Positions 30,201-54,444 of a DNA stretch of 64,000 nt are shown in pieces (position 1 is the stretch's first letter; every line of letters starts with the position of its first letter). The stretch spans positions 46,867 through 110,866 of the forward strand of contig JBDRNC010000008.1 of the NCBI GenBank assembly GCA_043811535.1, read 5' to 3'. The DNA is from Elusimicrobiota bacterium (GTDB taxonomy: Bacteria; Elusimicrobiota; Endomicrobiia; Endomicrobiales; JBDRNC01). Both the position numbers and the translations under genes were made by a program. Below the pieces are notes generated by a model. The model saw only the letters and a list, made by a program, of their open reading frames with translations. It was not told where the DNA came from and made no database searches.

Positions 30201-30236
30201 TTAAGTAGACCGGCACTTAAGTGCCGGTCTACTTAA
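30201..30236. repeat. 36-bp perfect palindrome, GGCACTTAAGTGCC family
   Basis: ttaagtagaccggcacttaagtgccggtctacttaa. Confidence 0.9.
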
Positions 30237-46843: not shown

Positions 46844-47185
46844 ATGAACAAAAAAGAAATGGAAAGATTCAACAAGATCCTGCTCGAAAAACGCGAAGAC
46901 CTTCTGAAAGTCGTGAAATCCAAGAAAGAGAACGATCTGATTGAGGTCGAAATAGGCGACGAGATAGACACGGCATCCGCGACAAGCGAAAAAGAGCTTC
47001 TTTTTGAACAGACTGACAACGAGAAGATCATCCTCGATGCGATCGAATCCGCGCTCCGCCGCATAGAGATCGGAAAATTCGGCATGTGCGAATCCTGCGG
47101 GCTGGACATCAAGGAAGGCCGCCTCAAGGCCATCCCATGGGTAAGATACTGCATCGAATGCCAGAACAAGGTTGAAAAAGGATAA
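46844..47185 (+). CDS. TraR/DksA family transcriptional regulator
   Basis: GDEIDTA, C4 zinc finger CESCG..RLKAIPW.RYCIEC. Confidence 0.92.
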   Translation: MNKKEMERFNKILLEKREDLLKVVKSKKENDLIEVEIGDEIDTASATSEKELLFEQTDNEKIILDAIESALRRIEIGKFGMCESCGLDIKEGRLKAIPWVRYCIECQNKVEKG

Positions 47186-49128: not shown

Positions 49129-49671
49129 ATGATGGAAGAGTTGGTTCCGCAAACCAGGATAGAAAGCAGGATTTTCGTCATCAGAGGCAGGAAGATTATG
49201 TTGGATAAGGATCTGGCTGAATTGTACGGAGTATCCACTAAAGTACTTAATCAAGCGGTAAAAAGGAACTTAAAACGCTTCCCGCCCGATTTTATGTTTC
49301 AATTGAATAATCAAGATGTTTCAATCTTGAAGTCACAAATTGTGACTTCAAGTTGGGGTGGTGTACGCAAACTTCCATTCGCTTTCACCGAGAACGGAGT
49401 TGCCATGCTTTCTAGCGTCCTGAACAGCGAAAGAGCGATTCAGGTAAACATCCAAATAATGAGGACATTTGCACAATTGAATCATTACCTTTCAACTCAT
49501 AGAGAACTAGCTCGGAAATTCAAAGAATTAGAAGAACGAGTTGAAAAGAAACTGGGTAAACAGGACGGAAAAATAGAATCAGTGATTGATGTTATCAATA
49601 ATTTATTACTCCGGCCGCATATAGAGATTCCTAAACCGAAATTTAAGATCCGGGGATTCAAGAAGACTTAG
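49129..49671 (+). CDS. ORF6N domain DNA-binding protein
   Basis: IRGRKIMLDKDLAELYGV, NQAVKRN..RFP.DFMFQL, AFTENGVAMLS. Confidence 0.92.
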   Translation: MMEELVPQTRIESRIFVIRGRKIMLDKDLAELYGVSTKVLNQAVKRNLKRFPPDFMFQLNNQDVSILKSQIVTSSWGGVRKLPFAFTENGVAMLSSVLNSERAIQVNIQIMRTFAQLNHYLSTHRELARKFKELEERVEKKLGKQDGKIESVIDVINNLLLRPHIEIPKPKFKIRGFKKT

Positions 49672-49702
49672 CCATATATTTTTGTCATTGCTGGGGGAAA
49701 TA

Positions 49703-50461
49703 ATGACGAAATTCAAGACCGCGCTGTTTCTTTCCACACTGTTTATTCTCATACTTATTTCACACCCGCTATATCCTGCCGCCGAGATGGTTGAGATTTC
49801 CGTAGAAATCACAGAAGTCAACAACGACAAGGCGAACGAACTCGGCATCAAATGGGTGGACACGCTCGCCGCGGGCGAAGTCGCCGGTTCAGCCGATAAA
49901 AGATCTCCCGAATCCCTTCCGGAAGTGCCCTCCCTTGTGCAGGCCGGGGACATAAAAAGATTCTCAGCCCTGACCGCGGAACTTAAAATCCTCATCCAGA
50001 AAGGCGCCGCTAAAGTACTTTCAAAACCTAAGATCACGACAAAGTCCGGCACTTCCGCGAGTTTTCTTGTAGGAGGCGAAATCCCTATTGTCTCCGCCGG
50101 CGCTACCGGCGGCGGGTCCGTCGACTGGAAAAAATACGGCATAAAATGCGATGTTTCGCCCGTTGTTTCCGGGGACTTCATCGATTTCGGCCTTGTCACG
50201 GAAGTCAGCCGCCTTGACTGGTCAAACCAGGTTAAGGAAAATCCAGCTATCCTGACCAGGACAGCCTCCTCACATGTCAGAGTTAAAAGCGGGCAGACAA
50301 TCACGCTTGCGGGTCTTGTGGAAACAGCCAAGCAGGAACAAATCATAGGGATACCGCTTCTTTGCGATATTCCGATTTTAGGTTATCTTTTCAGCCGAAA
50401 AAAAATGGTTGAGAACAAGACTACGGTGCTGATATTTGTGACGCCAAGGATATTGGAATAA
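49703..50461 (+). CDS. Secretin (RcpA/CpaC-like), secretin domain only
   Basis: LSKPKI, FLVGGEIP, IPLLCDIPILGYLF, IFVTPRI. Confidence 0.85.
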   Translation: MTKFKTALFLSTLFILILISHPLYPAAEMVEISVEITEVNNDKANELGIKWVDTLAAGEVAGSADKRSPESLPEVPSLVQAGDIKRFSALTAELKILIQKGAAKVLSKPKITTKSGTSASFLVGGEIPIVSAGATGGGSVDWKKYGIKCDVSPVVSGDFIDFGLVTEVSRLDWSNQVKENPAILTRTASSHVRVKSGQTITLAGLVETAKQEQIIGIPLLCDIPILGYLFSRKKMVENKTTVLIFVTPRILE

Positions 50462-50585
50462 ACCCCGTTAGAGCTAGGCCGCCTTTCGGCGGCCGTATTC
50501 CTTTATATTTTTCTTATTGTGTTATTTTCCGCGACAGCATAATACTCATGAGCAAAAATAGAAATATGTGTATCTCTAACGGGGT
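50462..50585. mobile_element. ACCCCGTTAGAG...CTCTAACGGGGT inverted-repeat element
   Basis: 12-bp perfect terminal IR; right end overlaps GTG at 50584. Confidence 0.75.
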
Positions 50586-50790
50586 GAAAACTAAAAGGGA
50601 AAAAGGTCAGGCCCTCCTTCGCTCGCCGCTGAAGCATTGGGGAGCTACGGAAGGGCAGGTAATGGCGGAATATGTGATTGCGGCAGCCATTCTCGTCATC
50701 GCCATAGCAGGAGTCCTGATAGTATTCAGGGAAGGCCTCGCCGTAGTATTCAATAAAGTAGCGGGCCACCGTTGCGGGATGTACCCATGA
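50584..50790 (+). CDS. Flp-type pilin with palindrome insert in the leader
   Basis: GQ-VMAEY then a hydrophobic helix; start uncertain (GTG 50584 or ATG 50548). Confidence 0.75.
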   Translation: MKTKREKGQALLRSPLKHWGATEGQVMAEYVIAAAILVIAIAGVLIVFREGLAVVFNKVAGHRCGMYP

Positions 50791-51446
50791 ATATATTAAC
50801 GAAAGTATCTCGGGACTCGTATCTAGTATCTCGAACAGCTGAAACACGCAAGAACCTTCATCAAGGCTTCGAAGGACAAGCCCGCCAAAGGCACTACGGC
50901 GGGCAGGCGATGGTTGAAACTCTGTTCGCGGTGGTTTTTCTGACGACGTTTTTCTTCGCCGCAATGCAGTTTATCATGGTCTCAATCGCGTGGTTAAGGG
51001 CCAACGAAGCCGCACAGGCGGGGCTAAGATGCGCGATAGTTTCCGAAGGAAGCACCGTGGAAGGCGCCGGCAGCGGCAATCCAAACAACCGCGCTCAAAC
51101 AGCGGTTTCATATATACTGGGGTTCGGCCTGCCTGCTAAAGCCGTACTTTGGGATAAAATCCCGGCCGAATCGGCCCGCCAGAGGCACAACGGCGGGCAG
51201 GCAGGGCGCGACCACTCTTCGGGCCCGAACATGAACGGCGCGAATATACGGATGTTCTCTCTGCACGTTTATTATTTTCAGAAACTGATGTTTTCGTCAT
51301 TTTTCAGCGGAATGTCTGCTTTCGGGATGCTGAATGTCTCGGACAAATACGGCCCAAGCGGCGCGGCACACTGCCGGATGATAAAGCCGCCTGACTGGAG
51401 GTATTATGAAAAAGCCTATCCGGAAGCGTATTGCTTCAATGAATAA
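50787..51446 (+). CDS. TadE-like pseudopilin
   Basis: GQ-AMVE + TM + EAAQAGLR; ATGA overlap start. Confidence 0.75.
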   Translation: MNILTKVSRDSYLVSRTAETRKNLHQGFEGQARQRHYGGQAMVETLFAVVFLTTFFFAAMQFIMVSIAWLRANEAAQAGLRCAIVSEGSTVEGAGSGNPNNRAQTAVSYILGFGLPAKAVLWDKIPAESARQRHNGGQAGRDHSSGPNMNGANIRMFSLHVYYFQKLMFSSFFSGMSAFGMLNVSDKYGPSGAAHCRMIKPPDWRYYEKAYPEAYCFNE

Positions 51447-52551
51447 GCCGATAAACTTCTATCTTCCGTCTTCCTTCTGCCGTAATCCGCGCGGCCAGGT
51501 ATTACCATACGCTCTGGTTATGCTCCTTGTCCTGATTATGTGCTGGGCGATGATGCTGAATATCGCGAAACTAACCGCGGACCGCATGATTACGCAAAAC
51601 GCGGCCGACAACGCGGCTGTTTCCGCCGCGGTTTACAGGGCCAGGGCCTTGAATACGCTCGGGCTCATGAATAACGCGATCGGCGCTCTGTTGTACGGCG
51701 GCAATGACGCGGTCACATCTTTTTGCTGGACATATCATAAATACTGCGTAAGCGTCGGCCTGACAGGATTGCCGGCAGGCGCGGCAATACCCCTTTTTCC
51801 TATGGGGGGATTGAACCCCGGAGACCTTCCCGGGGAATATGCTGAAGACAACCAGAAAAAGGTCGCGGGATATTTTGATACGTACGGGAGTAACGACCAT
51901 CTACAGGTCCGGTTAATTAAAACAGCCGTTGAACAACTGTCCAAGACGCAGCAATTAATAGCAAAAACCATTTATCCCGTTAAAGTACGCCTGCTCGCTA
52001 ACGATATCGGCAAGAGACAGGAAAAAAACCGCGCCGGAGAATATTCAGGCGCCGATCTCACATATATCGCAAGAGGAACATCGCTGGGCCTCAAAACAAA
52101 CACAAACGGCCCCGAGTACCATAGATCCAAGAAACTTGGCTGGCCCGAATCTTTTCTGATAAAAGGTGCGATAAACACGCTCATAGCGCTCACCGGTACC
52201 CCTGTGGAAATCAAGGAAATATACCAGGCTGAAAGATGGAGCAGCGGGAACTCTTCATGGCTGTACGCCGATAAAGAAGAATTTGACAAGAATCACAAAA
52301 TAACCGTTATTTGCGAAAGGCAGGAGAAAGGCTATCCTCTGCTCGCCGGCTGGTTCGGGATAAAGTGGCCGTCAATAAAGACCATAGCGGCCGCAGGGAC
52401 CTACAATACCGCCGGGCCGATGTTCCCTGTGGAAACGAATGAAAAACCGTCCGACGCTATCTCTCCCGTGATCAGGGAATACCAAAAAGCCGAAGATCAC
52501 GGATGGGACGCGCACCTGGCGCCGGTTAAACAAATGGGGATACTGCATTGA
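51439..52551 (+). CDS. TadG-like Tad domain protein
   Basis: RGQVL + TM + QNAADNAAVSAA. Confidence 0.8.
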   Translation: MNKPINFYLPSSFCRNPRGQVLPYALVMLLVLIMCWAMMLNIAKLTADRMITQNAADNAAVSAAVYRARALNTLGLMNNAIGALLYGGNDAVTSFCWTYHKYCVSVGLTGLPAGAAIPLFPMGGLNPGDLPGEYAEDNQKKVAGYFDTYGSNDHLQVRLIKTAVEQLSKTQQLIAKTIYPVKVRLLANDIGKRQEKNRAGEYSGADLTYIARGTSLGLKTNTNGPEYHRSKKLGWPESFLIKGAINTLIALTGTPVEIKEIYQAERWSSGNSSWLYADKEEFDKNHKITVICERQEKGYPLLAGWFGIKWPSIKTIAAAGTYNTAGPMFPVETNEKPSDAISPVIREYQKAEDHGWDAHLAPVKQMGILH

Positions 52552-53162
52552 CGACAATTACAGATTACAAATTACAAATTACATACAAAAAAAGAAACGG
52601 CGGGCAGGCCCGCCAAAGGCACTACGGCGGGCAGGCGCTTGTGGAAATTGTATTAGTCATTCCGCTTTTTATTCTTATCATATCTTTTACTTTGTGGTTC
52701 GCGCGGGTCTTGATAACGAAACAACAGCTGGTGACCGCCGCCCGATACGGAACCGACATGATCCTTTACACAACGCTCAACGAAAAACAGATAAAAAAAG
52801 AAATTCGCAATTACCTTTCGGATACCAATATTGAAGGAAGGAAACTTGATCCCGCCGGGCTGCCTGACGAAAATATCGCGGTTAAAATCGAAGGCTTCGT
52901 TCTCCCTGATTTTTCAAGCCCGTATGACCTGCTGGATCCTGGAAAATTGGGCAGACTTCTCGACGCGGGCAACCTGCTGGCCTTCCCTGAAAGGCACACT
53001 TCATGGGTTGAAATCCATTATGAATTCAGAACGCCGCGCGTCGTCTCGAATTTCAGCAGATATTTCTCCGGAGGTTTTCTGCCTGAGTCAATCACTATCT
53101 CGGGAAGGTCCGAAGTGCTCGCGGGAACCGGCTGCGGGAATGGGATACATGGACGACAGTAA
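52548..53162 (+). CDS. TadE-like pseudopilin
   Basis: GQ-ALVE + TM + AARYG; TTG start overlapping the upstream stop. Confidence 0.8.
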   Translation: MTTITDYKLQITYKKRNGGQARQRHYGGQALVEIVLVIPLFILIISFTLWFARVLITKQQLVTAARYGTDMILYTTLNEKQIKKEIRNYLSDTNIEGRKLDPAGLPDENIAVKIEGFVLPDFSSPYDLLDPGKLGRLLDAGNLLAFPERHTSWVEIHYEFRTPRVVSNFSRYFSGGFLPESITISGRSEVLAGTGCGNGIHGRQ

Positions 53163-53244
53163 TGAGTAATGGGTATTGAGTATTGGGTTTTTAGTATTTA
53201 GTATTTAGTGTTTAGAGTTTGTCTTAAATGGGGGGTGATTCACA

Positions 53245-53418
53245 ATGCTTATTAACTTCAGAAGGAACAGCAGGGGGCAGGGGATGGTGGAGTATATCCT
53301 GATAGTCGCGCTGATCGCGGTCATCGTGCTTGTCGGGATCAAACTATTCGGCGGCAAGATCAACACGCTGTTTCAGGACTCAGCCGAGAAGATTGAATCC
53401 GAGGCAAGGCCGCAATAA
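53245..53418 (+). CDS. flp: Flp family type IVb pilin (57 aa, absent from the ORF track)
   Basis: MLINFRRNSRGQGMVEYILIVALIAVIVLVGIKLFGGKINTLFQDSAEKIESEARPQ; SD GGGGGTG. Confidence 0.9.
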   Translation: MLINFRRNSRGQGMVEYILIVALIAVIVLVGIKLFGGKINTLFQDSAEKIESEARPQ

Positions 53419-53560
53419 CGCAGATTGTCACAGATAACTAGCACAGATAAGCGCAGATAAGACGTATCTGCGGCAATCTGCGTTTAAAAATCTGTTTAAT
53501 CTGCGCATGGGGCTTATCTGCGTTAATGTTTGTTGTCATAAAATCTGCGGTTATCTGCGT
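53418..53560. repeat. Gene-less two-armed CRCAGAT ... ATCTGCG element
   Basis: 4 left units and 7 inverted units; ends at the SD of cpaB. Confidence 0.85.
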
Positions 53561-53574
53561 ATGGGGGATAATAA

Positions 53575-54444
53575 ATGAAAAAGTCTTTAATCGCAACAGC
53601 AGTCTTCGGGCTCGTTTCCGCGGCGCTGGCCGGGCTCTATCTCGACTCTCTGGAAAAGACATATAAACAGAATTACGAAAAAACAAAAGTCCTTATATCA
53701 AAGCAATATATCGACCAGGGAATGATACTGGACGAATCCATGACTGAGGAAGTTATCGTTCCGAAAGCTTATATCCAGCCGCGCGCGATACCGTCAAAAA
53801 AGGACCTTGTCAATTCCGACGGGCGCAGGATATTCATGACGATAGTGCCTATCGTAAAGGGCGAGCAGATCGTCACGACCAAGCTTTTCATGCTGGGGAT
53901 GGATATCGGGCTTTCAGCCGTGGTCCCGGCCGAAAAAAGGGCCGTAACGCTTGTTTGCGACAGGCAGGACGTGCGCGGCCTGATAAAACCGGGTAACAGG
54001 GTTGATATCATAGGGGTTTTTGAATATGAAGACAACGGCGGCAGGTTCCGGCAGGCCTCCGCGACAATTCTTCAAAACATACTGGTGCTCTCGGTAGAAG
54101 ATATCTTTTTCGGCGGCGAAAAGCTGAATGACTCCAGGAAAACCGGCAGTCCGTACCCGGAATCCGCGGAAAGCAAGATCCCGGTTTCTCTCGCGTTGAC
54201 TCCTCAGGAAGCCGAACTGCTGGCGCTTGCTTCGGAAAAAGGAATCATCAGGTTTTCGCTCAGATCCATGGGAGACGACCGCTTGGCGGCGACAACGGGC
54301 GCGAAAATGCAGGATCTTTTAAAAGACGCGCCCGCGTCCGCGAAAACCGGCGCGAAAGAGGAAAACGCGGAACCGTACGTCAAAGAAATGCGGAAGAAAC
54401 AGCGTGAAGCCCTTGAACTGCTGAATAAATATCGAGCTCCTTAG
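53575..54444 (+). CDS. cpaB: Flp pilus assembly protein CpaB
   Basis: SAF-like region, KRAVT..GLIKPGNRVDI, ILQNILVL, LTPQEAE, LRS. Confidence 0.9.
   Translation: MKKSLIATAVFGLVSAALAGLYLDSLEKTYKQNYEKTKVLISKQYIDQGMILDESMTEEVIVPKAYIQPRAIPSKKDLVNSDGRRIFMTIVPIVKGEQIVTTKLFMLGMDIGLSAVVPAEKRAVTLVCDRQDVRGLIKPGNRVDIIGVFEYEDNGGRFRQASATILQNILVLSVEDIFFGGEKLNDSRKTGSPYPESAESKIPVSLALTPQEAELLALASEKGIIRFSLRSMGDDRLAATTGAKMQDLLKDAPASAKTGAKEENAEPYVKEMRKKQREALELLNKYRAP

Follow-up and report, generated by a model that had tools for sequence, protein, structure and literature searches.

The DNA analysed here is a stretch of 64,000 nucleotides from an Elusimicrobiota bacterium, hereafter the window, which spans positions 46867–110866 of contig JBDRNC010000008.1 (C8) in a source assembly (G000) of 2.65 Mb, 40 contigs, 48% G+C and 92.8% completeness. 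Open reading frames (ORFs) and Pfam matches identify the region studied as a Tad (type IVc) pilus locus, in which a 27-nt hairpin repeat lies in frame in both TadE-like pseudopilin genes and a 48-nt repeat of a second family lies in frame in a Flp-like prepilin gene. A secretin gene (49682–50461), followed by a strong terminator, precedes the Flp-like prepilin gene (Flp1; 50548–50790, + strand), an ORF with no Pfam match, and the first TadE-like gene (TadE1; 50787–51446, +), which has an ATG at 50787 in a frame open from a TTG at 50772. A TadG-like gene (51406–52551, +; PF13400 at 20 bits, under the cut-off), the second TadE-like gene (TadE2; 52548–53162, +) and a second Flp pilin gene (Flp2; 53245–53418, +; Pfam Flp_Fap at 39.5 bits, cut-off 32.2) follow, with the genes for RcpC and then a TadA-type ATPase 3′ of Flp2. 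The Pfam TadE profile scores 36.0 bits on residues 28–68 of TadE2 (cut-off 22.9) and 18.5 bits on TadE1, where the cut-off is not reached. Relatives from the same order, which are annotated as Endomicrobiales, keep this gene order, and TadE2 orthologues are present in 36 of 40 relatives.

The 27-nt element and its copies

An earlier note, made from the sequence alone, had recorded identical 25-mers in the two TadE-like genes and a variant inside the first. A mismatch scan bears this out: GCCCGCCAAAGGCACTACGGCGGGC occurs exactly at 50880–50904 and 52608–52632 and with two mismatches at 51174–51198, which makes three matches at no more than three mismatches, where 100 shuffles gave an expectation of 0.00. 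The conserved unit, GCCCGCC-A[AG]AGGCA[CA]NAC-GGCGGGC-AG, is 27 nt long and consists of a 7-bp stem (GCCCGCC/GGCGGGC), an 11-nt loop and a terminal AG. Copy A (50880–50906, +; 51.9 bits in the model described below) follows the codons GGA CAA (Gly-Gln) of TadE1, encodes ARQRHYGGQ and is followed by GCG ATG GTT GAA (A-M-V-E). Copy C (52608–52634, +; 52.6 bits) is identical to it and follows GGG CAG (Gly-Gln) of TadE2, where ARQRHYGGQ separates the leader MTTITDYKLQITYKKRNGGQ from ALVEIVLVIPLF. The identity of A and C spans 30 nt, GCCCGCC...GGGCAGGCG, beyond which the flanks diverge at once. Copy B (51174–51200, +; 50.3 bits) lies inside TadE1, with ARQRHNGGQ between ...PAES and AGRDHSSG. The translations agree with the reading GQ-ARQRHYG-GQ-A that had been proposed for both TadE-like ORFs and with GQ-ALLRSPLKHWGATE-GQ-V for the Flp-like one.

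A covariance model was built from the aligned 27-nt copies and run on the whole genome. It returned exactly five members at 43.5–52.6 bits, the next best match scoring 18.5 bits. The two copies outside the Tad genes, which answer the concern that the motif might be limited to these, lie in mnmA on contig C18, a gene supported by Pfam and read here in another frame (K-PARGKTAGR-PNCCG), and in a radical-SAM cluster on contig C28, right after the stop codon of an ABC-transporter gene and in the first codons of a transglutaminase-like ORF. The five copies are thus spread over three contigs, four within ORFs and one at an ORF start, and all five are in sense orientation relative to the gene. The dinucleotide GC stands directly 3′ of the unit in all five and is the sole feature common to their junctions. 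The hairpins fold at −15.4 to −15.5 kcal/mol with z-scores of −2.1 to −3.0, apart from the C28 copy, the stem of which has decayed (z −0.11). Rfam gave no match for the element at E-values up to 1. The 27-nt unit makes up a genuine, lineage-private family of palindromic in-frame insertions.

At TadE2, an 11-nt direct repeat, GGCGGGCAGGC, at 52599–52609 and 52626–52636 (+) brackets the rest of copy C, and its upstream copy is also able to pair with the left arm of the element. A blastn-short search with this region found a match of 13–14 nt at C8:99462–99475. On the minus strand, from 52615 to 52598, pairing of the upstream GGCGGGC with the left arm gives a 7-bp hairpin, after which comes TTTCTTTTTT; this resembles an intrinsic terminator for antisense transcription.

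The insert in Flp1

The insert in Flp1 (50611–50658, +) is 48 nt long and in frame, and adds 16 residues between the leader end ...EKGQ and the second GQ, which is followed by VMAEYVIAAAILV. The earlier note had described it as a related hairpin. Its status as an insert, the regenerated Gly-Gln and the GGGCAG end stand; its sequence assigns it to a separate repeat family, here called family 2. It folds no better than its shuffles (−23.0 kcal/mol, z −0.85), so that 'palindromic' is a weak description for it. Counterparts of its two arms, GCCCTCCTTCGCTC and GAGCTACGGAAGGGC, occur at four further loci of the genome, in an alignment with 20 invariant columns; the centre of the Flp1 insert measures 17 nt, against 2–4 nt at those loci (13–17 extra central nucleotides). 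None of the other family-2 copies examined lies in a convincing ORF, and one follows the 3′ end of a tRNA. Prepilin junctions of one kind are therefore occupied by two different repeat families. Two copies of a longer unit that ends ...GGAAGGGCAGGCAGGTTCGAATGGCGTTTAC and contains the family-2 right arm were also seen, at C38:59001 and C38:67680.

Homologues without the inserts

For the internal site of TadE1, none of eight homologues (46–71% identity) has the nine residues; seven show a gap of nine columns there and the eighth a gap of six. The nearest homologue (P0055; 71% identity by BLASTP) reads YPLES directly followed by AGNDHSSG, where the window reads IPAES[ARQRHNGGQ]AGRDHSSG. The double GQ at the TadE1 N-terminus is likewise found in none of the eight: a lone GQA[MA]VETL is present in seven, and the gene model of the remaining one begins MVETLL. 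The TadE2 insert is missing from all ten homologues, eight of which have a single [GA]Q leader and two of which are represented by gene models that begin MVE; seven orthologous N-termini from relatives, read from the DNA, have a single GQ. No MnmA orthologue (0/17) carries the insert, all of them showing a gap of at least 8 columns, and the MnmA of the window's genome is nine residues longer than that at L033. For Flp1, a single [GA]Q precedes xxxEY in the syntenic orthologues of G002, G012 and G014; a word-based protein search with Flp1 returned nothing beyond the window's own protein. No orthologue of the transglutaminase-like ORF was found among 30 relatives. Since the homologues of the Tad proteins and of MnmA that were compared do not have the extra residues, the inserts are lineage-specific and do not represent a conserved leader peptide, the other circumstance that would have spoken against the idea of insertion.

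Junctions and target choice

Downstream of the inserts the protein junctions read G/QAMVETLF..., G/QALVEIVL... and G/QVMAEYVI... in TadE1, TadE2 and Flp1, respectively (slashes mark the junction). The Gly, the Glu at +5 and the hydrophobic stretch are intact, the motif is kept in homologues, and the downstream Gly is where the Pfam TadE profile starts in TadE1 as well as in TadE2, in keeping with the earlier claim that only the downstream GQ has Glu5 and the hydrophobic helix. From an upstream start, the reading frame runs without a stop across each leader insert. Prepilin leaders vary in length, end in Gly or Ala, are cytoplasmic and are removed by a prepilin peptidase, according to the relevant passages of PMC10191384. 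The only Peptidase_A24 gene of the assembly (L086; G000:C17:139270–142611) encodes a PilD-type protein of 257 residues with A24_N_bact and Peptidase_A24 domains; it belongs to a type IVa pilus cluster that also encodes PilM, a T2SSF protein and an N_methyl pilin. From the retained motif, we infer that the inserted peptide is probably cut off together with the leader by a prepilin peptidase at the downstream Gly.

At the DNA level, the inserts are bracketed by GGACAAGC and GGGCAGGC in TadE1 and by GGTCAGG and GGGCAGG in Flp1. On the + strand of 49500–54000, there are six occurrences of the pattern GG.CA[AG]GC, each at an element end or a junction; the whole genome has 898 on its two strands. 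Once the inserts are subtracted, two native GGNCAR/GC sites are left in the locus. These are the Gly-Gln-Ala codons of TadE1 and TadE2, and a copy sits at each. The Gly-Gln sites of the TadG-like gene (GGC CAG/GTA, 51493–51498) and of Flp2 (GGG CAG/GGA, 53275–53280), in which the next bases are GT and GG, are empty. At the three remaining copies of the 27-nt element the left flanks are GAATCG, TTCAAA and ATAGCG, and two of these copies are read in another frame (PARGKTAGR). The coincidence of the element's end with the Gly-Gln codons, proposed as a target rule, accordingly holds for copies A and C and fails for three of the five; the Gly-Gln codons are not an exclusive or general target. Our own reading is that the positions reflect a weak preference or microhomology, nearness to an older copy and a filter of selection.

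Origin of the insertions

We consider it rather probable that the 27-nt unit is a very small non-autonomous repeat, similar to the repetitive extragenic palindromes (REPs), that has been copied to five places, and that the leader copies are harmless because they sit at cleavage junctions. A length divisible by three would let the element survive in frame inside genes, and copying may have been guided by short matches between its 3′ end, GGGCAG/GC, and the target. The youngest copies would be A and C, which are identical and took the Gly-Gln-Ala codons at the cleavage junctions of TadE1 and TadE2, 294 and 1434 nt from the presumably older internal copy B. At the equivalent junction of the Flp-like pilin lies the family-2 repeat, which looks unrelated and has the GGGCAG end in common with the 27-nt unit. 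With each insert upstream of an intact Gly, Glu5 and hydrophobic-helix motif, the extra basic residues would form part of the cytoplasmic leader and be cut off with it, and the junctions would act as harmless landing sites that purifying selection does not clear. A Y1/HUH transposase acting in trans and microhomology-mediated template switching are equal candidates for the copying mechanism. The genome encodes five Y1_Tnp proteins, each flanked by a different hairpin, and these genes, together with an insertion sequence (IS) of IS200 type and a GTAG-tagged REP described below, indicate that hairpin-recognising single-strand transposition is available in the cell.

Several observations weigh against this account. 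The 27-nt hairpin does not flank any of the five Y1_Tnp genes, in an assembly whose completeness (92.8%) would allow for a missing gene. The element has no terminal GTAG or CGTC tag, CTAC/GTAG being present only in the loop of two of the five copies, and the GGNCAR left flank is missing at three of the five sites. The family amounts to five copies, all from a single metagenome-assembled genome; neither an empty-site allele nor an excision product was found, and no public sequencing run was listed for 50400–53300. The covariance model gave only weak matches, of 24.9–29.2 bits (in G001, G005 and G011), in the 103 other genomes of the order, and two large collections of genome and metagenome contigs gave only chance matches. 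No TadV-type peptidase was found within or outside the Tad locus. Finally, the public gene models begin at or after the inserts, with MEIVLV for TadE2 (P0001, 173 residues), MVETLF for TadE1 (P0054, 178 residues) and a start 12 residues into Flp1 for P0067 (68 residues); since these models drop the leaders, we can only infer translation of the leader copies from the upstream starts.

A stronger version of the same idea, in which an active mobile hairpin of 25–27 nt homes to Gly-Gln-Ala codons through matches with its own 3′ end (GGGCAG/GC), the leaders serve as 'self-cleaning' safe harbours for selfish DNA in essential reading frames, with the mature protein unharmed, and the second family, which has the same 3′ end, reached the same kind of junction independently, is unlikely, although it has a real chance of being right. 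The 'self-cleaning' site as such goes back to the earlier note, which is partly borne out, and is a reasonable consequence of the findings: the insertions are real and the downstream motif is kept, but Gly-Gln is not a general target, and removal of the peptide is a matter of prediction. Were the mobility true, the 27-nt unit would push the lower size range of dispersed insertions and rank among the smallest known.

Local gene conversion or templated copying, by which short-patch recombination pasted a single insertion between the paralogous TadE leader junctions with no mobile element involved, appears quite unlikely to us. It would account for the 30-nt identity of A and C, whose homologous junctions belong to paralogues separated by 1.7 kb, and agrees with the presence of three of the five copies within 1.8 kb and the lack of a cognate transposase at the five Y1_Tnp loci. 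Against this, unlinked copies lie on other contigs, in mnmA and by the ABC-transporter/radical-SAM cluster, in another frame. Next to A and C, matching bases number only 4 of 6 upstream and about 11 of 17 downstream, not enough for homologous recombination, and the Flp1 junction carries a different repeat family, so that at least two independent events have taken place at Gly-Gln junctions.

We find it very doubtful that the leader copies are untranslated, with starts at the GTG or ATG right after the insert, leaderless pseudopilins and hairpins that are REP-like 5′ untranslated or intergenic DNA. The truncated gene models favour such starts, repeats do crowd the gene junctions of this genome (as in the heptad array described below), and Di Nocera et al. 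warn that many N-terminal 'intragenic' REPs are truly extragenic (PMC3733652). The open frame upstream argues the other way, as do insert lengths (27, 27 and 48 nt) that are all divisible by three and a Gly-Gln, Glu5 and hydrophobic-helix motif that is intact here and kept in all homologues with a leader. Gene callers cut homologues without an insert in the same manner (P0005, P0006 and P0060), and copy B and the mnmA copy are unquestionably within coding sequence.

It seems highly improbable that the inserts are selected for a function, whether as an operator with a palindromic sequence, as a leader extension with an effect on processing or as an RNA hairpin that adjusts mRNA stability or translation of the Tad genes. 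Stable hairpins clustered in one operon, a basic added peptide consistent with the positive-inside rule and a third arm at TadE2 that permits alternative pairing would suit this view. Against it, the unit is also present in mnmA and near an unrelated gene cluster, the stem of one copy has decayed, the element is found at these sites in none of the homologues from 104 genomes of the order, Rfam offers no match, and the conserved loop points to common descent and not to convergent selection.

Relation to known repeats

In-frame intragenic palindromes are already known; their placement at the cleavage junction of prepilin leaders is a new variant, and a literature search on palindromic in-frame insertions in prepilins found no paper. 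Among the Rickettsia palindromic elements (RPEs), RPE-1 is about 150 bp long, and each RPE encodes a conserved peptide module. In-frame insertion into genes of otherwise conserved proteins, by which RPEs are recognised, is also seen in TadE1 and MnmA, with nine residues each. The 27-nt unit is nonetheless far smaller than the 100–150 bp or so of an RPE, is read in two frames and belongs to a free-living-type Elusimicrobiota genome. The small dispersed repeats (SDRs) of heterocystous cyanobacteria, a subject of Elhai et al. in 2008, are reportedly 20–30 nt or so in length, hairpin-capable, mobile by comparison of orthologous sites and in some cases located in genes; they belong to another phylum. 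RPEs, the classical in-frame case, are also selfish palindromic repeats that lie in frame in unrelated protein-coding genes whose products are still functional, as stated in sections of PMC10969869 and PMC3733652.

Intragenic REPs typically have stems of 6–9 bp and loops of 2–20 nt, and single in-frame units add about 10 residues to known proteins, often near the N-terminus (PMC3733652). The element resembles them as a short, dispersed stem-loop, within the 20–40 bp or so of REPs, in frame near the N-terminus, in a genome with RAYT-like (REP-associated tyrosine transposase) Y1 transposases. It differs in having no GTAG/CGTC tag (its tail is AGGC), only five copies, a mostly intragenic location and no flanked RAYT (REPtron), and in that two copies coincide precisely with a peptidase cleavage junction and restore it. 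Since it departs from REPs in tag, copy number, location and REPtron structure, we use the term REP-like for it and do not include it in that family. REPs and their doublets, the REPINs, are thought to be moved by RAYTs, as outlined in parts of PMC3116915. With the IS200/IS605 and REPIN–RAYT systems, as presented in the same parts of that source (PMC3116915), the element shares a recognised hairpin, the lack of a long target duplication, insertion beside a short specific sequence and the possibility of a Y1 enzyme acting in trans; it differs in that no link was found between the hairpin and any of the genome's Y1_Tnp genes or its IS200-like element, the left flank is inconstant and the 27-nt elements are singlets, whereas REPINs are doublets. 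The arms could also be read as 7-bp inverted repeats and the GC as a 2-nt duplication, as in a miniature inverted-repeat transposable element (MITE); the size lies well under the 70–300 bp of MITEs, and the 11-nt repeat of TadE2 has no match at the other sites. At the protein level, the downstream junction is like that of a class III signal peptide, with Gly at −1, Glu at +5 and a hydrophobic helix (PMC10191384, in the passages cited above), and unlike it in that the insert creates a second, upstream Gly-Gln with neither Glu5 nor helix.

The locus offers an example of selfish palindromic DNA within reading frames where the cell would discard the encoded peptide. Three junctions in one operon, taken by two repeat families, suggest that cleaved leaders are permissive landing pads, and that repeats can be steered to a coding motif by its short matches with the end of an element. 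The inserts also imply that prepilin peptidase tolerates leaders 9–16 residues longer, with a decoy Gly-Gln, and, together with neighbouring heptad arrays, they appear to mislead gene callers, three public models having dropped the leaders.

Other matches, transposases and repeats

The exact pattern CCGCCARAGGCANNACGGCGGGC matched 11 loci of genome contigs and seven of metagenome contigs, all from unrelated organisms with 54–74% G+C and none with the AGGC tail; at the four loci that were translated, long ORFs cover the match on both strands. One of the matches (L065) equals the 25-mer of copy B exactly, and its other strand belongs to a 421-residue ORF encoding KPAVVPLAGPANKQG, which we take to be a conserved disulfide-oxidoreductase motif; we read this match as chance. 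A locus with four mismatches at C22:16087 was rejected; it scored 16.8 bits in the model and lies within ...KDTTAGHWE..., presumably a motif of the phosphopentomutase-like ORF in which it occurs. The pair of weak matches in G001 is part of a larger, different repeat: L073 and L075 are two copies of an inverted-repeat element, ATCCTGAACCCCTCCAAAGGCGGGCAGGCAAGTTCAGGAT, that contains the GGCGGGCAGGC word. The word GGCGGGCAGG was dropped as the mark of a large family, since most of its 34 occurrences have no hairpin. Single matches to GCCCGCC-N3-16-GGCGGGCAGG, in an intergenic region of G003, a ParB-like ORF of G005 (ARHTAGGQA) and MutS of G007, were not counted as members. The MutS of G007 (L081, G007:C45; EEPASAAGRPG) shows a net gain of five residues over that of G000, not the seven expected of a hairpin-plus-AG unit, and its hairpin and that of the ParB-like ORF (L072/L080, G005:C11) may be independent hairpin-forming insertions in relatives.

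Among the transposase loci of the genome, L001 (G000:C35:10757–14119) is an IS200-like element with a 146-residue Y1 transposase and the end hairpins CACCAGGCTCCTGCCTGGTG and CCGCCGGCTCCTGCCGGCGG. These hairpins recur at 12 places, many of which are contig ends, and the element is therefore probably an active IS, present in multiple copies at which the assembly breaks. At L005 (G000:C30:5087–8332), a GTAG-tagged REP, GTAGAC(C)GGCACTTAAGTGCC(G)GTCTAC, flanks a RAYT-like gene; it is found at 10 loci, one of them at about 30205–30232 of the window. Further RAYT-like genes at L003 and L004 each have their own flanking palindromes.

Heptad arrays are a further feature of the Tad genes. A GTATCTC-type array was seen by eye in the TadE1 leader at about 50805–50832, where Tandem Repeats Finder made no such call. 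The same program reported AATTACA in four tandem units at 52556–52583 (+; period 7, 4.0 copies, score 49), translated within the TadE2 leader as TDYKLQITY, and arrays of AGTATTG and GTATTTA, in six to seven units, lie at 53158–53215.

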